The position numbers and the translations under genes are program-made. From Bacillota bacterium (GTDB taxonomy: Bacteria > Bacillota > Sulfobacillia > Sulfobacillales > Sulfobacillaceae), in the NCBI GenBank assembly GCA_021797675.1, contig JAJZZH010000105.1, positions 7,472 through 71,471 of the forward strand: DNA of 64,000 bases, written 5' to 3'. Under the pieces are notes generated by a model, which saw only the letters and a program-made list of their open reading frames with translations, ran no database searches and was not told the DNA's origin. This document shows, one piece after another, positions 544 through 16,651 of this stretch (position 1 is its first letter; the number at the start of each line of letters is the position of its first letter).

Positions 544-1584
544 ATGGAAAAGATTACGCGTGCGGTGAAAATTCAAGAAGTAGCCAAGGCGGCGCAAGTG
601 TCCATCGCCACCGTCTCGTACGTCATGAACGGACGCGGCCATATTTCCCAGGAGACCCGGGAACGTGTGCTAAAGACCGCGGAGCGCCTGGGATACAAGC
701 CGAATTCGGCAGGGCGCGCGTTGGCTTCGCAACGCGGCCATGCGGTCGGGGTGATCTTGCCGATGGGCTCCAGCCTCCTGGACAGCATGATGGTTAACGT
801 CATGGCTGGCCTGGCGGACCATCTCCGCACGCACGCTTACGACTTGGTCCTATTTGCCTCCCAGTCGACCATCGCCGACACGTTGTCCGTGGTCTTCGAT
901 GCGCTTAAGACCAAGCGAATCAATGGCGTCGTATGCCTAGACCGGCGATCGCGCGACGTCGTGATTAGTGCGGTGCACGAAGCCGAAGTACCCATCGTTT
1001 GGCTGGGCCAGGTTCCCGACGAGGCCTGGGTGGATTTGGACCGCTACCGGGGCGGGCGCATCGCCACCCAATATTTGTTAGGGCTTGGTCACCACAGCAT
1101 CGTACACCTGGCGTTAAACAGCTCAGAGGGCCGCCTAATCCGCCAAGGATTCGAAGACGCCATGCGCGAGGTTTTGCCCTCTGACCGGGTGGTCGTCGAA
1201 GAGACCGATGGGACCATCGCCGGCGGCTATCAGGCGATGCACCGGCTCGGACTTTCGGGATTTCGCGCCACCGCCGTGTTTGCGGCCAGCAATTCGTTGG
1301 CCGAAGGCGTGTTACGGGCGGCGGGAGAACTCGGCCTGGCAGTGCCCCAGCAGCTTTCCGTGGTCGGCTTCGGTGACGCGGCACTCGTCGGGCATACCAT
1401 CCCGCCGTTGACCACGGTAATTTCCGACGGCTATGCCCTGGGGGTGCTCCTCGCCGAAGTCGCCTTGGACCGGGTGGACACCAACCGGGTGCGCGGGGCG
1501 TCGAGCGTGCCCTCCTTGCACGTCGGCGCCAGCTGTGCGCCGGCTGGCCACTATGAAACCCCGGGCCATTCGGCGGACCTCGAA
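544..1584 (+). CDS. LacI-family transcriptional regulator (HTH plus periplasmic-binding-like sugar sensor domain); no stop codon before the downstream debranching-enzyme domain
   Basis: N-terminus IQEVAKAAQVSIATVSYVMNG is a classic LacI HTH, followed by about 330 aa of PBP-like fold. It is the first ~347 codons of ORF 544..3603. Confidence 0.8.
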
Positions 1585-3603
1585 ATGATTAAGCGCGGGT
1601 GCACCTTCGCGATTTTTTCCCATCAGGCGACCATCGATCCCCTGCATCCCGGCAGCGGTCTGTTTGACGGGGATACGCGTCTGGTCCATCTCTACCGCGC
1701 GTATGCGGATGACGTTCTCCTGCGGCCCATTGCCGTGGAGCGCGACATACACCGCTTGACGTGGTCTTATGTCGTGCAGCATGCGGGATTTACCCGGCAC
1801 TTGCGTCGAACGCTCAGCCTATTTCCGGACCATTGGGAAGACACCTGGCAGTGGCGCCACTATGGGCAAAGCCCGTCGGAATGGCAATTGGCGATTCAAG
1901 TCGGCTGCGACTTTCGCGATGTGTTTGAGCTGCGCGGGGTGACGGCGAGAGACCACGGCCCGGTCGGTCTTGACCACCGGGAGGAACCGAGCCGCTATGG
2001 CTACGAAGGCCTGGATGGCATTGAGCGGTCGGTGGAGATCGAGGCTTCGCGCCCCCCGGGGGACTGGCAGGGAGACCATATTCGCTGGACGATCGGCGCC
2101 CAGGAGCCATCGGGTTCGCTAACCCTTCGGGTTTCCTGGCAAAATCCGGCGGTGCTCGCGCCGATGCGCAATCCGGTCGAAGATGCGGTGCCCTGGCCCA
2201 CCATCGAAACCAACCGACTGGATTGGAAAGCTGTCCTGGATCAGTCGTGCCAAGACCTGCGGTTGCTGCTTACCGATTTTGGCCAAGGCCCCGTATTGAT
2301 GGCGGGGCTACCTTGGTTCGGGACCTTGTTTGGGCGCGATGCGGTGCTGTCGGCGATGGAACTCCTCGAATGGGTGCCGACGGTGGCGGAGAACACGGTG
2401 GCAACCCTGGCCGCCTGGCAAGGAGCCCAAAACTTGCCCGACCGGGAAGAGGAGCCGGGAAAAATCCTTCACGAGATGCGACTCGGCGAATGGGCCAATC
2501 GTGGCATGGTACCCTTCGGACGCTACTACGGCTCAGTCGATGTAACGCCCCTATATATCAGTCTGTTGGCGGAGACCTGGCGGCGATCGGGGGATGATGC
2601 CTGGGCCAGCCTGTATTTGCCCGCCGCGCGGGCGGCTGCCGATTGGCTCGATCGCCAACGCTCCAAAGAGTGGAATCACCGTGTGGTGCGATTCGAACCG
2701 CTGGCTAGCGGAGGGCTTACCGTTCAATCCTGGAAAGATTCCGCGGACTCGATGGTGTACCCGGATGGACAGCGGGCCAATCCGCCCCTGGCGGTGGCTG
2801 AGGTGCAAGGGTATATCTATCAAGCACTCAAACATATGGCATGGATGCTGAGACAGGCCGGCGAGAACGCAACGGCTGAGCGCCTTGATCAGCAGGCATC
2901 CCGACTCCGGGAAAATTTTCATGACATTTTTTGGCAAGAAGCCCAACGCTATTATGCGATGGCCATTGACGGCGAGGGCAAGCCGCTTGACGTGCTGAGC
3001 TCCGACCCTGGGCACTGCCTGTGGACGGGCATCGTGCCCCCAGCGTTTCGTGCCGATGTGGTTCGCCGGCTAGTTGGCCATGCGTTGTTTAGCGGTTGGG
3101 GAATCCGCACCCTGGGGAGCGGGGAAGTGGCTTACGACCCCTATAGCTACCACCGAGGCAGCGTATGGCCGCACGACACGGCGATTGCGGTCGCCGGGAT
3201 GGCGCGGGCGGGCGCGCTCAACGAGGCGGCCCGGGTCGGCCAGGGGCTAATCGATGCCGCGTATCGCTTGCCTAACCACCGCTTGCCCGAACTCTTCGCC
3301 GGCGAAGGACGGGACGTGGCCGCGAGTCAGCCGTCGGTCTATCCTTCTGCCTGTGTACCCCAAGCTTGGGCGGCGGGCAGCCCGTGGCTGATTTTGCAGA
3401 GTTTGATGGGGCTCAGGATAGACGGCAGAGCGAAAGAGATTGCCATCCATCCCCTGCCAGCGGTCTTGCAGGATGTCTGGTTTCACATTGATGGTCTCGG
3501 TTTGACGTCGCAGGCGTCCATCTCACTGCGCGTTGACACCGAGCGGGCGACGGTGGACGGATTACCCCCGGACTGGACGATAAAGGGGGTGGTAGGCGGG
3601 TGA
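1585..3603 (+). CDS. Glycogen debranching enzyme-like protein (bacterial GDE_N domain plus amylo-alpha-1,6-glucosidase GDE_C domain), in frame with the upstream LacI ORF
   Basis: Internal Met MIKRGCTFAIFSHQ...GLFDGDTRLVHLY matches the GDE_N start. PVLMAGLPWFGTLFGRDAVLS...GSVWPHDTAIAV matches amylo-alpha-1,6-glucosidase. ATG at 1585 is in frame with 544. Confidence 0.75.
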   Translation: MIKRGCTFAIFSHQATIDPLHPGSGLFDGDTRLVHLYRAYADDVLLRPIAVERDIHRLTWSYVVQHAGFTRHLRRTLSLFPDHWEDTWQWRHYGQSPSEWQLAIQVGCDFRDVFELRGVTARDHGPVGLDHREEPSRYGYEGLDGIERSVEIEASRPPGDWQGDHIRWTIGAQEPSGSLTLRVSWQNPAVLAPMRNPVEDAVPWPTIETNRLDWKAVLDQSCQDLRLLLTDFGQGPVLMAGLPWFGTLFGRDAVLSAMELLEWVPTVAENTVATLAAWQGAQNLPDREEEPGKILHEMRLGEWANRGMVPFGRYYGSVDVTPLYISLLAETWRRSGDDAWASLYLPAARAAADWLDRQRSKEWNHRVVRFEPLASGGLTVQSWKDSADSMVYPDGQRANPPLAVAEVQGYIYQALKHMAWMLRQAGENATAERLDQQASRLRENFHDIFWQEAQRYYAMAIDGEGKPLDVLSSDPGHCLWTGIVPPAFRADVVRRLVGHALFSGWGIRTLGSGEVAYDPYSYHRGSVWPHDTAIAVAGMARAGALNEAARVGQGLIDAAYRLPNHRLPELFAGEGRDVAASQPSVYPSACVPQAWAAGSPWLILQSLMGLRIDGRAKEIAIHPLPAVLQDVWFHIDGLGLTSQASISLRVDTERATVDGLPPDWTIKGVVGG

Positions 3604-5084: not shown

Positions 5085-5110
5085 GGCCAGCCATCGGTCG
5101 ATGGCTGGCC
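5085..5110 (+). terminator. Perfect GC-rich stem-loop (ggccagccatcg...cgatggctggcc) between the SBP and permease genes; intra-operon attenuator or mRNA-stability hairpin
   Basis: 11-12 bp perfect inverted repeat read directly. No U-tract follows and the next gene starts 8 nt later. Confidence 0.5.
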
Positions 5111-5117
5111 GCATACC

Positions 5118-6050
5118 ATGGCAAGTCTCCATCCGGCTGCCTCGCAGGCCCAACCCCGGCGAAAACGCATGTCGTTGGCCGCCCAGCGCCAGCGCCTTTT
5201 CTACTGGCTGATTTCTCCGTGGATCTTTGGCTTCTTGGCGTTTGTCCTCGGGCCCATGGTATTCTCGGCGTATCTCAGCCTGACGCGCTGGAACTTGCTC
5301 AACCGCCCCGTCTTTATCGGTCTTGGCAACTACCAGGCGATGTTCAAGGATCCGCTCTTTTGGCAATCGCTGAAAGTCACCACGATTTACGCATTGGTCA
5401 GCGTGCCTTTGACCATGGCGTTCGGACTGTTCTTGGCCGTGTTGCTGAATCAAAGAGTGCGAGGGCTTTCCATGTTTCGCACGATTTTTTACCTGCCCTC
5501 GGTCATTTCCGGGGTCGCGGTGGCGGAAGTGTTCATGTGGGTCTTTAATCCCCAATTTGGGGTGCTCAACGTGTTTTTGTCCTATCTCGGCATTCACGGC
5601 CCGGGGTGGATTTCGAGCCCAACCTGGGCCCTGCCGGCGCTCATTTTGATGAGCCTCTTTGGGGTGGGCGGCCCCATGATCATTTTCCTGGCCGGTCTGC
5701 AAAATGTGCCGCCGGCATTGCTTGAGGCCGCGTCGCTGGACGGCGCGAGCAACTGGCGGCGGTTTTGGACGGTCGTCATTCCCCTGTTGACGCCGACGAT
5801 TTTGTTCAATTTGGTTCTCTCGATCATCAACCAATTTCAAGTATTTACGCAGGCCTACGTGATGACTCAGGGGGGGCCGCTCAATGCCACGCTGTTTTAT
5901 GTGTACTACCTATTTGAGAACGCGTTTCAGTACTTGAATTTTGGGTACGCGGCGGCCATGGCCTGGATCCTCTTTTTCATTGTGCTGGGGTTGACGATGA
6001 TCGTCCTAGCGAGCTCTGGCCGGTGGGTCTTCTACCAAGGAGGCGAATAG
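5118..6050 (+). CDS. Carbohydrate ABC transporter permease (MalF/UgpA-like)
   Basis: Multi-TM protein with EAA-type motif region (LEAASLDGASNWRRFWTVVIPLLTP). Confidence 0.85.
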   Translation: MASLHPAASQAQPRRKRMSLAAQRQRLFYWLISPWIFGFLAFVLGPMVFSAYLSLTRWNLLNRPVFIGLGNYQAMFKDPLFWQSLKVTTIYALVSVPLTMAFGLFLAVLLNQRVRGLSMFRTIFYLPSVISGVAVAEVFMWVFNPQFGVLNVFLSYLGIHGPGWISSPTWALPALILMSLFGVGGPMIIFLAGLQNVPPALLEAASLDGASNWRRFWTVVIPLLTPTILFNLVLSIINQFQVFTQAYVMTQGGPLNATLFYVYYLFENAFQYLNFGYAAAMAWILFFIVLGLTMIVLASSGRWVFYQGGE

Positions 6051-11368: not shown

Positions 11369-11649
11369 GCCGACACCTCCGTTTCCCACATGATAACATG
11401 CCCTGAATCGCGCACGAAAAGCCAGGCACAAAAATCACCTAAGCGCCCTGGCAACGGAGCGATGCATCTGACGATCACAGCGTCTGGGTCGTTCCGAGCC
11501 ATAGCGCTGTGGGTCTTCTGGCGCACTATCCATCGGAAACGGCGATAGGCTCCCATCGATCGATCTTTCCTGCGGGGAAGATCTTCACCTATACTATACT
11601 TCGCCAGCGCACTTTATCAAGCAGGCGATTTGACGCATAAAAAAGGTAC

Positions 11650-12960
11650 TTGAACTGCCTTCGTTGCCTCACTCACAAGAAAATGTACTCGAAAAGGGGT
11701 GCGGTGATGGCAACACGAACTACTCGGCATCAAACTCAGGAGGATCTTTTGATGCCGTTGTCTTTGTCTGAACGTCTGGCGATGACCCAGGAATTAGCCC
11801 AACCATATCGTCGCGCCACGAAACGCGAGCGATCGGCACTCATTACCCAACTGCAAACCCTGTGTAGCTATAACCGGTCCTATGCCGGGCGGGTCTTGCG
11901 GCTGGCCTCCGCGCATCGCGGTCGCCCCAAGCGTCGATCCCCCAAGCCTGGTCGCGGCCGGAAACCGACCTATGGTCCGGCGGCGAAGCAGGCGCTCGTG
12001 CACTGTTGGGCCATGCTCAATTTTCCCACGGGCAAACGCTTACAACCGTTTTTGGCGGAACTGGTCGCCCAGTTAGAACACCACAGGGAACTGACCGTGG
12101 ACCCCGCGACGCGGGGGCAGCTCCTCGCGATGAGCGCCGCCTCCATCGATCGCTTTCTCGCCCCCGAACGGCGGCGGTTAACGATCAAGGGCCGCCATGG
12201 GACCAAACCGGGCACGCTGCTCAAACAGCAAATTCCGGTCCGCACCTGGGCGGAGTGGGACGATGCGACCCAGCCCGAGTTTCTCGAAATCGATCTCGTC
12301 TCCCATGATGGCGGCGCCGCCCGCGGCGACTTTGCCTGGACGCTCGACATGGTCGACATCCTCACCGGCTGGACCGAAATCGCCGCCGTGCCCAACAAGG
12401 CTCGGAAGTGGGTGCTGGAGGCGCTGAACGCGCACCGCAGCCAGTTTCCGTTTCCCCTGCGCGGTCTCGATTCCGACAATGGCAGCGAGTTCATCAACCA
12501 TCATCTGCTCGCCTGGTGCGAAACGCACCACATCACATTTACGCGCTCCCGAGCGTATCACAAGAACGACGGCTGTTACGTCGAACAGAAAAACTGGGCG
12601 GTCGTCCGACGCTTTGTCGGCTACCTCCGCTATGAAGGCCCGGACCAGGTGGCGTGGCTGAATGAGCTCTACGCCACGCTGCGTCTCTACACGAATTTCT
12701 TTCAGCCGCTGCAGAAGACGGTGTTCAAGGAGCGGCGAGGCGCTCGGGTCTACCGCCGCTACGACACGGCCCGCACTCCCTATCAGCGGGTCTTAGCTTT
12801 ACCCGACACGGTGATCTCCGCGGATCAGAAAGCCACCTTGCGCCAGCAGTACGAGGCGCTCAATCCAGCGGCGTTGCGCCGCGACCTGACCCGCCTCCAA
12901 GACCGGTTAGGGGACACGGCCCACCTCGATGACCCCGAGGAGGCCGCCCCCACGCCCTAA
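11650..12960 (+). mobile_element. DDE transposase with rve integrase core domain (IS481/IS3-like); apparently intact
   Basis: VSHDGGAARGDF...DSDNGSEFINH...RAYHKNDGCYVEQKNWAVVRRFVGYLRYEG gives a D, D(SDNGSEF), E catalytic triad region plus an N-terminal HTH-like segment. The true start may be Met at ~11707. Confidence 0.8.
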
Positions 12961-13055
12961 ACCCGAGGCGGGTCAGATAATCCAGATTCGTGAAGGTCTC
13001 TTCGCCTACGCGCACACTCACCGGTTTGATGGCCATCAGCGTTCTCGCAAGCACA

Positions 13056-13094
13056 GTAGCTCCCATGGCATGCACAGCATGCCATGGGAGCTAC
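13056..13094. repeat. Perfect 18-bp-stem palindrome (gtagctcccatggcatgc aca gcatgccatgggagctac)
   Basis: Read directly. It lies between the rve transposase and the 3' end of the IscB relic, and could be an IS200/IS605-type subterminal hairpin or a bidirectional terminator. Confidence 0.7.
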
Positions 13095-13242
13095 TCGGGA
13101 TACGGAGGGGAATCAATGCCGGTCCATCGCGAGCTACGCTCGGGCCGCAGCGGCTCGGGGGCCCTGCGAACCTCCGGAAAGCCTGGATCGTCTTGCCGGG
13201 CCCGAGAGGTGTAGAGAGCGGCATCAAGATCTCTTCTCGAAT

Positions 13243-13289
13243 CAGATTAGCTACCACTGCATTCACTGCATTCGCTGGTAGCTAATCTG
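13243..13289. repeat. 14-bp inverted repeat (cagattagctacca / tggtagctaatctg) around a 19-nt loop that contains a direct tgcattc x2 repeat
   Basis: Read directly; a second hairpin 3' of the IscB relic. Confidence 0.6.
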
Positions 13290-13717
13290 GATATCGGATC
13301 TGTCCATGGGGTCACCCGTGACCCGCAAGCCCGACCGCCCACCGGTCCGATCAGGCTCGCGTCTTTCGCCTTCGGGTCGGAACGCGCCGCTCTCAGCCCG
13401 GTTGGATCCGGTCCGCTTGTGACAGCTTTTCGGGACACAGCGGGCACCGACGGACGGCAAAGGCCCGGCGATCCCCGAGGCGGGCTTCGCCTACGGCTGC
13501 GCCCGCCTCGGGGATGCTCCATCCACCACCCTTCTCCGAACCCCCCCATTCTCAAATGCCCTACCCAAGAGGAACCTCTCTGACCTTCCAAGGACCAAAA
13601 GATGCTCTCGACCATAGGATCCCTCTAACGTCCGTGGTATGATTCCAGAGACATTTAATTTTGAGGCAATGAATCCCCGCTCAAGTACTTTTATTTGTGA
13701 GGGAAGACGCCTTCGCC

Positions 13718-15288
13718 TCACGGCGAGCGCCTTATATCCCCATACCTGAAGGTAGGGGTTTTACGGCGCGCTGGATAATAACGTTGTCGCACATGCCGGC
13801 GATAGCTGCGGTTGGCCACGTTGGTCGCTTGGTCATGCTCATCGACGACCATCCGAGCGGGATCCACGCCGGGTTGCCGGGCGGCGGCGCTGCGATACGC
13901 CGCGACCCCGGGATTGACGTCAAAGAGTTTGCGGCCGTCGTGGCGGGCGTGCAGCTTGACCGTATACGCGGCGGCGACATCCACCCACGAAACCCCAGGA
14001 CGGCAGCCCAAGACCATCGCATCGTTGGCGTGAGTTTTATCCACGCCGAAGGCTTCGCGAAGGGCCGCCGTTTCATAGCCATAACGGACGGTCACCGGCA
14101 GGCCCCATTGGTGAAGCCGGGATTCCAGGAGCAGTCGGCCGTGCATCGCACGTCCCGCCGCGCGGACGTTCGGATACGCTGTGATGTCGAAACAGAGCGC
14201 CAAGGCTTGGGTCGCGACCGCCGTATGACAATGAGCGCATAAGGTGCCCTGGATGTCATAGCGGGCGGACCCGCCGTGTTTGCGTTGCACGAAGTGGTGG
14301 ACATGCGCCGTTTCTGCCGTAACGGAGGCGCCACAGTACAGACATCGAAATCCGTCGCGTTGCAAGATGGCCAGGCGTTTTTCCGCCGACGGTGCGACAC
14401 CTTGCATAACGAACTTGGGCCCCGGCCGCTTGCGCCGTTGCGGTGCCGCGCCATAGACTTTGCGCTGGATGTTGAGTTTGACAATCTCTACCTGGATGTC
14501 CGTAATCGGATACCAGCGGCGCAGACGCTCGAGAACATTAAGCTTGCCTTGCACATCGGCGCGAATGCTGGGCGGATACGGAACCGGCTTGCGGTAGAAA
14601 ATCTTGCTGCTGCCAGCCCGATGGCGACGATGATTACGCCGATTGCGTCGGGCGTTGCGGATGGCTCGGCGGGCCTTCAGTTGGTCGCTAATCCGTTCAC
14701 CGCGGGTGGGAAGAAAAGTGTTGAGTCTAAGGTTATTTGGCCAAGACCAGTCTCGATTTCGTTGGCCGTTTTCGCAAGGAGCCCCTTTAGCACTGGCCGA
14801 ATGGATGGGTCGTGATAAACGGGGCGTCCATTCGGCCAGTCCCCGCCTGGCAGCGGTCTGATGACGTAGATCAGGCGCATCCTCGCGTGTTCCGACGAGG
14901 CAGTCTTCCCGTGGCGATGGCGGCATATGCAGCCGCGATTGCGTTCCTGGCCGTAGAGTTCTACGAGAAAAACGTGGCCAACAAATTTGAGAAAACACCT
15001 CGAATTTGCGGCCAAAAATCGTGGGACTCAACAGCAGAGCACGCGATCGGCATACGGCAGGTGTTCCACCACCGCGAATCCGACGGTCTGGCCATCGTCG
15101 AGCGTGACCCTTACGGGAGCAAATCCAGGGTGGTTGACCAAACGATTCAGCTGAATGACAAACGGGAGTCGAGACACGATGCGAGCTTTGTGGTGTTGAA
15201 GCAGTTGGCGTGCGCGAGCTGGATGGCAAGGCGACAGCGGCTGACCATCGGCGTTTAACACAGGAACATACGCAATATGGGTCATCAA
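13718..15288 (-). pseudogene. iscB: IscB (OMEGA-system RNA-guided HNH/RuvC nuclease of the IS200/IS605 superfamily) split over three reading frames
   Basis: Frame A (15288-15028): MTHIAYVPVLNADGQPLSPCHPARARQLLQHHKARIV...RVTLDDGQTVGFAVV gives the PLMP domain plus RuvC-I. Frame B (15015-14677) gives a linker. Frame C (14700-13718) gives LKARRAIRNARRNRRNHRR (bridge helix), the HNH motif CLYCG...HVHHFVQRKHGG...CAHCH, and RuvC-III GVDKTHANDAMVLG. At least two frameshifts are present. Confidence 0.75.
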
Positions 15289-15600
15289 CACGATAAAAGA
15301 CTCCTTTCCAGGAGAACTCCCCCGAAGGGGTGGGAAAGCGACCCTGTGCCGCTCGGTCAAGGTGTGGGCCTCCCAAGCCGTGAAAGCCTTGGCGTACAAG
15401 CGTCCAATCAGTGCGCGAACCGGCTAGGATCAGCACCGCCCTTGTAGCCCCGATCGGAGCCTTGACGTCATCGCATAGCGTGTACAACACATCCGGTAGT
15501 TAGGTTAGAGCCCGAGGAGAGGATTCCTCAAGCTCCGGCCTTTAGGCCGGGGTAGTTGACCCCTGTGGATATGGCGTCAGTAGACGCTATATCGACACAT
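15289..15600 (-). ncRNA. Candidate omega-RNA/left-end region of the IscB element
   Basis: GC-rich, ORF-free, inverted-repeat-rich sequence immediately 5' of the IscB PLMP start, which is where IscB omega-RNAs are encoded. The call rests on position only. Confidence 0.25.
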
Positions 15601-16651
15601 ACCCCAAAGCAGGATTGGGATTAGGCCGGAGACGGCCACGAATAAAACTGCGGCCCGCGGAAGAGCGAACAATTCCAGGCGTGCTTAAAAATGCCTAGAT
15701 CTGCGAGGTTTCTCGGTAGAGATGCGGAGATATGCTGAAGCACGTTACCGCGGTGGGGTTCTTTTGCAAGATGTCGCAAGCCTCCCAATATCTACCCAGC
15801 CGTTTAACTGGCCATCTGAGGGACGCGGATCGAAGCGTTCTGACGCGCCGACCTGCAGAGCGCTCGCCGCTTGGAATATTCTCGTTTCGTCCGGCTCCGT
15901 CGCCGCGTTGCCCTTGAACCTGCCCGCCCCAAAAAGGGCGGACATTGTATTGTGGGCGAACCACCATGGCTGCGTCGCGGGTCGTGAGACCCTGGGAGTG
16001 ACCCTCCTGACTCGCCACCGCTTATCCCGCCAGCCATGTCCCGGGGATCAGCCGGACTACGCCTTAACGCTCCCTGGAGGGGAACGGGACGGCGATACGT
16101 GTGGTTTCCACACGTCAGATCCTAATACCACCGTGTTAGAGGTGGTCGGTAGATGTTCGCCTGTTTTACCGTCGTATTCTGACGACGCGATACATTTTAC
16201 GTCTTCTACGATTGCGGGAGACGACCGCCAACGTATCCAATTGCCAAAGAGCGAACATGCGTATTTTAGCAAGAGATTTGCCTGATGGCAACGCCTTATA
16301 TCTCCGCTCTGAACGGCGGAGTTTTACGGCGCACCCTGATAAACTCAACAGTGGGGGGACTGCGGTTCCGGGCTCTGCCCAACCGAGCTTGGCGCGGCCG
16401 GGACAGAGCGCCTAACCCGGTTGGGCATTAGCCCCTGAGCGTCCACTCGCCGAACCACGCGGGCTTTGAACGCGCTGCGGTCGGAAGATCGGCGGGACAT
16501 TATCGAGCTCGCAGGTGATTTCGCGGAATTGGGTCCAACTGCGGTGGAACCATTAATTTCCGCGCCGAATACCCCTATATAGCGGGCCATCAACCACCGT
16601 CCGGAAAGCTTAACGGATCTCCACTCCAATGCTTGCTGAGGAGATGATGGG

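Follow-up and report, generated by a model that had tools for sequence, protein, structure and literature searches.

Structure of the Locus

An interrupted gene of the RNA-guided nuclease IscB (OMEGA system) and the omega-RNA gene located directly upstream of it were analyzed in a 64,000-nt stretch of DNA from a Bacillota bacterium (contig JAJZZH010000105.1, positions 7,472 to 71,471; the whole stretch is hereafter called the window). Both genes lie on the minus strand, and the following features were distinguished there:

15295–15560, minus strand: omega-RNA scaffold of about 266 nt, divergent HEARO type, starting GTCAACTACCCCGGCCTAAAGGCCGG, delimited by a leave-one-out profile and covariation
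15034–15291, minus strand: 5' segment of IscB with the PLMP domain and RuvC-I (LDDG motif, Asp63); the start codon is GTG at 15291 or ATG at 15285
14719–15033, strand not assigned: inserted non-coding element of 315 nt, resembling a miniature inverted-repeat transposable element (MITE), with 24-nt terminal inverted repeats starting TGTTGAGTC
14714–14718, minus strand: junction of 5 nt (CTTTT) in place of the 9 nt of the relatives (AAGGTGACC)
13775–14713, minus strand: 3' segment of IscB with the bridge helix, RuvC-II, HNH and RuvC-III, up to about residue 400
13718–13774, minus strand: 18 unrelated read-through codons (PARRKTPTFRYGDIRRSP) and a stop codon, past the truncation point of IscB

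Identification of the IscB Gene Remnant

The segment at 15288–15028 matched the Pfam family RRXRR (PF14239) at profile positions 1–70 (E-value 5.9e-18). The open reading frame (ORF) at 14740–13718 matched the same family at profile positions 79–160 (E-value 3.1e-13) and also contained an HNH domain (PF01844, E-value 2.1e-6). The two matched parts of the RRXRR profile nearly abut, and the approximately 320 nt between the two IscB pieces are foreign. A tblastn search revealed 79–92% identity of the 5' segment to the related proteins P0001, P0003 and P0005, and the 3' segment aligned with P0001 in one block with 89% identity; no stop codons were found in either segment.

The two pieces joined in silico gave a sequence of 417 aa, which scored 185.8 bits against the NCBIfam equivalog model guided_IscB (NF040563, cutoff 175); the score of the intact relative P0003 was 185.2 bits. 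For the joined sequence, 76 homologs were found, the best of which were 81–88% identical and 525–542 aa long, and several of them are named 'RNA-guided endonuclease IscB' by NCBI. When a profile built from 38 full-length relatives was compared with solved structures, the best matches were TbaIscB (9k30, 1.7e-39), HfmIscB (9k2z, 1e-37) and OgeuIscB (7xht, 5e-30), followed by IsrB and Cas9d. Modeling of P0003, which is intact and 81% identical, using AlphaFold led to a model with a predicted local distance difference test (pLDDT) score of 74.2 and a predicted template modeling (pTM) score of 0.66. A Foldseek search with this model returned complexes of IscB with omega RNA and DNA at the top (9k30, 8csz, 9nvu and 9liq, E-values from 1.6e-20 to 2.9e-17). 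Thus, by both profile and fold evidence, the protein belongs to the IscB family of OMEGA nucleases.

All catalytic residues are kept in the window copy, namely Asp63, Glu162 and His314/Asp317 of RuvC and His225/His226 of HNH. They occupy invariant or nearly invariant columns of the alignment of relatives (A1) and also align to the IscB structures of the PDB. The ORF is interrupted by the 315-nt insertion together with the replacement of 9 nt by 5 nt, which shift the frame, and a stop codon occurs two codons into the insert. The two lesions aside, the remaining 1.2 kb of coding sequence is free of stops and frameshifts, and its identity to the closest full-length relative is 89%.

A preliminary description of the locus, made from the sequence alone, had assigned it to IscB. 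This assignment is borne out by the Pfam, NF040563, solved-structure profile and fold matches; the motifs that it quoted do occur on the minus strand, in the order given, the frame breaks lie where they had been placed (at about 15030 and 14700), and the IscB profile searches proposed there were positive (RRXRR and HNH for the separate segments, NF040563 for the two joined). Its account of the damage has to be corrected. The gene had been described as spread over three frames and decayed by two frame changes; there are only two IscB segments, and the supposed middle frame (15015–14677) showed no similarity to IscB and no Pfam match, being part of the foreign inverted-repeat element. The truncation of the 3' part was overlooked, and the statement that all hallmark domains are present does not hold, as about 130 C-terminal residues are encoded nowhere in the window.

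Element Inserted in the IscB Gene

The related loci compared at the DNA level were L002, from an ENA metagenome, and L003–L005, from Logan assemblies. All four are without the insert at the homologous site, and their alignment with the window runs from 15560 to 15034 and then from 14713 to 13774; blastn of the region of the 5' segment to L002 and L003 extended from 15560 down to 15034/15035. The relatives read ..CTGTGT AAGGTGACC CTTCCC.. at the junction, and the window reads ..CTCTGC (315 nt) CTTTT CTTCCC... The net change is +311 nt, so the frame is shifted and translation from the true start ends two codons into the insert.

The terminal inverted repeats of the insert (24 nt) are 79% complementary, and a second, subterminal inverted repeat was found besides them. 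The insert also contains a perfect 14-nt internal palindrome at 14792–14840. Comparison of the insert with Pfam gave no match, and neither an intron nor any other Rfam family was recognized in it.

A scan with the inverted-repeat pattern was performed against a collection with one genome per species, outside of which the window's own genome lies. Four loci were obtained, of which only one (L009) was real; the other three (L006–L008) were rejected, as they matched the 24-nt pattern only, by chance. L009 comes from the contig JAJZZI010000060.1 of a different metagenome-assembled genome (MAG), that of a 'Bacillota bacterium'. Its positions 5095–5559 hold an intergenic copy of 465 nt, 96% identical to the insert, and the homology stops exactly at the tips of the repeats. 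The window insert is flanked by AAAAG and GCAGA, the L009 copy by GCGAT and ACAAT. The L009 copy includes 144 internal nt that the window copy does not have, and given its length of 465 nt, the copy in the window carries an internal deletion of 144 nt.

Because the tips of the inverted repeats bound the homology and a near-identical copy exists elsewhere, the insert is considered to be a non-coding mobile element. It is small and MITE-like, sharing with MITEs the short length (315–465 nt), the lack of coding sequence, the 24-nt terminal inverted repeats, more than one genomic copy and a variant with an internal deletion. It differs from them in that there is no target-site duplication, no parent insertion sequence was identified and only two copies are known.

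Truncation of the 3' Part and the Neighboring Insertion Sequence

The full-length relatives comprise 520–542 aa, and the homology of the window copy is lost at 13775, at about residue 400–415. At the level of both protein and DNA, homology to all relatives ends at 13774–13778, after ..RSYRRHVRQRYY, and the relatives extend about 130 residues past this point. A tblastn search with five relatives revealed no remnant of the missing C-terminus anywhere in the 64-kb window, and a search downstream of 13775 for a remnant of the far transposon end gave only chance matches of 8–19 nt. In the P0003 model the missing part is a beta-rich domain with strands between residues 433 and 528; its position and predicted fold allow us to assume that it would be the TAM-interacting (target-adjacent motif) domain.

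The truncation point is followed at a short distance by another mobile element:

11623–13712, plus strand: insertion-sequence-like element of about 2.1 kb with an rve (DDE) transposase at 11650–12960

The transposase (436 aa) matched Pfam rve (E-value 3.2e-10) and, weakly, the NCBIfam IS481 model (34 bits; cutoff 224). The ends of the element are imperfect inverted sequences of about 50 nt, whose alignment score was 28 compared to 15.3 +/- 2.4 for shuffled sequences (maximum 26). An exact-sequence look-up of the transposase, aimed at the ends of the element, revealed no other copies. The public contigs that carry the IscB locus stop inside or near the insertion sequence, which suggests that it is present in many copies. 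Its 3' non-coding part of about 750 nt contains palindromes at 13055–13095 (19 nt, perfect), 13243–13289 and 13471–13515.

The sequence at 13713–13774 matched nothing and contains two short hairpins, CCCCTACC..GGTATGGGG and GGCGCTCGCC..GGCGAAGGCG; an Rfam match to Polynucleobacter-1 in this interval (17.5 bits, E-value 0.81) was chance-like and was rejected.

Omega RNA

A conserved non-coding stretch was found 5' of iscB in every related locus. It starts with GTCAACTA in 11 of the 12 relatives; in the exception, L040 (1560–2010), the omega RNA is without its 5' third and the GTCAAC start, which represents another route of element decay. The homology of the window to the related loci ends exactly at 15560/15561, and the 25 nt preceding GTCAAC are different in each of 11 relatives (11/11). 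An nhmmer profile of 11 relatives, from which the window was left out, gave a single match in the window, at 15560–15295 (E-value 1.9e-53, positions 1–285 of the 290 in the profile). The scaffold length in the aligned loci of the clade is 245–311 nt.

The 12-locus alignment of the omega RNA (A2) contains 61 invariant columns. RNAalifold predicted 43 pairs for it, and compensatory double changes were seen in 21 of these pairs. On the predicted structure, 95.3% of cells were paired, compared to 82.7% in shuffled alignments (0 of 500 reached the observed value) and 33–44% when the structure was slid, and the covariation score was 0.454 versus 0.215; because the structure was derived from the same alignment A2, these controls are biased in its favor. 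The window copy keeps 41 of the 43 pairs, and the relatives keep 39–43. At the level of sequence, the scaffold at 15560–15295 was thus confirmed as a complete omega RNA, predicted to be structurally unimpaired.

Two further features belong to this region:

15561–15580, minus strand: putative guide position, about 16–20 nt on the 5' side of the scaffold, beyond the transposon end; this length is an assumption taken from known IscB systems
15295–15314, minus strand: hairpin at the 3' end of the omega RNA (CTCC-TGGAAA-GGAG, then TCTTTT), which holds the Shine–Dalgarno sequence of IscB

The guide probably lies just upstream of the scaffold, outside the element; its role and length at 15561–15580 are presumed here from what is known of IscB biology. 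The stem-loop at 15314–15301 with the T-rich tail was flagged as terminator-like, and the stem covaries in the relatives (A2 columns 303–305 with 324–326). The hairpin could serve both as the terminator of the omega RNA and as a mask on the translation of iscB.

A search of the whole window at the Rfam gathering thresholds gave no match. At permissive E-values, HEARO (RF02033) was found at 15459–15560 with 15.2 bits (gathering threshold 83, E-value 4.4), with only the 5' hairpin aligned; a match to SNORA57 was also obtained and was rejected as chance. HEARO is the omega RNA of IscB and sits at the right end of the transposon, and divergent HEAROs were accepted on the basis of a 15-bit threshold and position (Meers et al., bioRxiv 10.1101/2023.03.14.532601). 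The window RNA shares with the Rfam family the location upstream of iscB in the same orientation, the 5' start GUCAAC.., the first hairpin (model positions 1–40) and a long multi-helix scaffold, which in the window clade is backed by covariation. In contrast, the middle 139 positions of the model have no counterpart, and the clade scaffold is not captured by the model.

The preliminary description had placed an omega RNA directly 5' of the gene. A conserved, structured and covariation-backed scaffold was indeed found there. The covariance-model search that it proposed succeeded in part, as HEARO matched at the right place with a score below the gathering threshold.

Mobile Unit and Similarity to Known Systems

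The loci L002 and L003 share 1878 nt of homology, which begins at GTCAAC and ends roughly 20 nt short of the stop codon; this span is therefore taken as the extent of the mobile unit. The window retains the omega-RNA-side boundary at 15560, and the last approximately 375 nt of the 1878-nt unit, including the far end, are gone. Thus, the comparison with related loci, proposed earlier as a way to define the element ends, yielded the unit and one boundary in the window, the other being lost. The genes called in the vicinity of the relatives included no Y1 transposase.

The content of the unit is similar to that of the non-autonomous IS200/IS605 elements (ISGst, bioRxiv 10.1101/2023.03.14.532601), with an omega RNA and iscB, no tnpA and a length of about 1.9 kb. 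The boundary likewise coincides with the 5' end of the scaffold, beyond which the variable guide flank is located. Unlike these elements, the window element has no end far from the omega RNA.

Compared with the IscBs of solved structure (OgeuIscB 7xht/7utn/8csz, TbaIscB 9k30 and HfmIscB 9k2z), the order of PLMP, RuvC-I, arginine-rich bridge helix, RuvC-II, HNH, RuvC-III and C-terminal beta domain is the same, as are the omega RNA directly upstream and the catalytic Asp, Glu, His and Asp together with the His-His of HNH. However, the identity is 13–21% and the RuvC-I motif is LDDG instead of IDPG. In addition, an insertion divides the window copy in two and its C-terminal domain is missing, which makes it a pseudogene.

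Occurrence in Other Assemblies and Genomic Context

Collinearity with the window, insert included, extends for 5.7 kb in L001, a contig of GCA_027447325.1, and outside the transposase the two sequences show only two differences. The identical 402-aa read-through ORF was found in the ENA assemblies ERZ27237466 and ERZ27237477 and in NCBI GCA_027343485.1. The metagenome ERZ27237477, in which the disrupted copy of the window is present as L044, is also the source of L002 (k141_328757), the closest uninterrupted relative. The gene in L002 (5824–6060) is broken by an in-frame stop near codon 46 (..PFGIQ*NRLVEHP..) and is therefore also a pseudogene.

The window is chromosomal and contains genes for aconitase, cytochrome oxidase subunit I and sugar metabolism. 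Among named species, the aconitase reaches no more than 68% identity (Sulfobacillus), and closer matches were found only in MAGs; therefore, the host is an uncultured, Sulfobacillus-like lineage of Bacillota. No second copy of the insert, the omega RNA or the IscB pieces was found in the window by self-BLAST, tblastn or the omega-RNA profile. On the plus strand at 544–3603, a single ORF of 1019 aa combines a LacI-type DNA-binding/periplasmic-binding-like regulator with a glycogen-debranching/MGH1-like glycoside hydrolase; such a regulator–glycoside hydrolase fusion would be unusual if real.

Discussion

All these data allow us to consider the locus a recently inactivated, immobile remnant of an IscB/omega-RNA element, which is a known kind of element; we estimate the probability of this interpretation at roughly 0.9. 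The starting state would have been a non-autonomous element of the IS200/IS605 type, about 1.9 kb long in the intact relatives, with the omega-RNA gene followed by iscB. In one event, the 315-nt inverted-repeat mobile element entered a site between RuvC-I and the bridge helix. In another, the last approximately 375 nt were lost together with the C-terminal beta domain of about 130 residues and the far transposon end, possibly in connection with the adjacent insertion sequence carrying the rve transposase. The order and the mechanism of these two events are inferred. The inactivation must have been recent, because there are no further stops or frameshifts and all the catalytic residues are kept. 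As the IscB remnants are equally undecayed, recent inactivation also explains the intact omega RNA, without selection. Judging from the sequence, the locus would make no working IscB and would not be mobilized by TnpA, and RNA-guided, TAM-dependent DNA cleavage by the window copy is not expected.

Several points weigh against parts of this interpretation. No target-site duplication was found by eye at either copy of the insert at several offsets, and 9 nt of the target were replaced by 5 nt. The only sequence match behind the assignment of the missing part as TAM-interacting, to the C-terminus of TbaIscB, is non-significant (i-Evalue 3.2). The ends of the insertion sequence rest on one imperfect inverted repeat that scored slightly above the best shuffle, and 62–63 nt of unexplained sequence separate the inferred end from the truncation point of IscB. 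A deletion associated with the insertion sequence may plausibly have caused the truncation. In addition, a promoter scan around the omega RNA revealed no sigma-70-like site.

The frame breaks might be explained by sequencing or assembly errors in an intact IscB gene, as was suggested in the preliminary description, and beyond this suggestion no support for it was found. The break is a block of 315 nt with its own inverted repeats and not a homopolymer slip, the same block is independently present in another genome (L009), and the C-terminal part of the protein is absent from the window in any case. Since the interrupted gene is identical in four other assemblies from different samples, an assembly error is excluded, and errors of this kind appear very improbable as an explanation. 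The removal of the insert at the RNA or protein level (by a self-splicing intron, an intein or programmed recoding), with production of a functional nuclease, is just as improbable. If 314 nt (15033–14720) were deleted, the frame would be restored and the product would have one residue less than the relatives at this site, but the search of 13300–16200 revealed neither an intron nor another RNA family even at E-values up to 10, the insert has terminal inverted repeats of the transposon type and is located between RuvC-I and the bridge helix, and its copy in L009 is intergenic. The product would still be without the C-terminal domain. It is least probable of all that the motifs come from another HNH family, such as group II intron maturases or McrA-like proteins, a possibility named beforehand as one that would overturn the IscB assignment. 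Some database relatives are automatically labeled 'McrA' or 'HNH endonuclease'; against this stand the RRXRR match, the IscB equivalog score above the cutoff, the best solved-structure matches, which are all IscB, IsrB or Cas9, and the HEARO-type RNA upstream, with no group II intron RNA found.

The preservation of the omega RNA could also mean that it is retained as a functional RNA, either acting in trans for an intact IscB paralog or as a regulatory RNA, which would make it an orphan guide-RNA gene. The scaffold is of full length, and its 41 of 43 pairs fall within the range of relatives with full-length genes (39–43); the metagenome that contains the disrupted copy also contains related IscB elements (L002 in ERZ27237477). 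However, the IscB remnants show just as little decay, their 1.2 kb being free of additional stops; searches of the 64-kb window found neither a second IscB nor another omega RNA, and no promoter-like site was revealed. We consider such retention unlikely, if less so than the three explanations above. That the omega RNA of the dead element is still transcribed and used in trans or co-opted as a regulatory RNA would be marginally less likely again; nothing in the data beyond the intactness of the scaffold speaks for its use in trans, for which the chances are similarly low.

Elements composed of iscB and its omega RNA are abundant and dead copies of them are to be expected, so the locus alone is of little importance. 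NCBI already annotates the proteins of this clade as IscB, and only the omega-RNA variant missed by the Rfam model and the unclassified MITE-like insert are mildly new. The locus nevertheless adds a well-defined clade of IscBs of 520–540 aa from Bacillota-type genomes and metagenomes, and the 12-locus alignment could seed a better model for an omega RNA that Rfam HEARO misses (15 bits). It is also a clean, dated example of the death of an element through the insertion of another mobile element and the loss of one end. Apparent multi-frame IscB genes should accordingly be checked for insertions before frameshifts or sequencing errors are assumed. If the omega RNA does act in trans or as a regulator, it would be a natural orphan OMEGA guide RNA that has outlived its nuclease.

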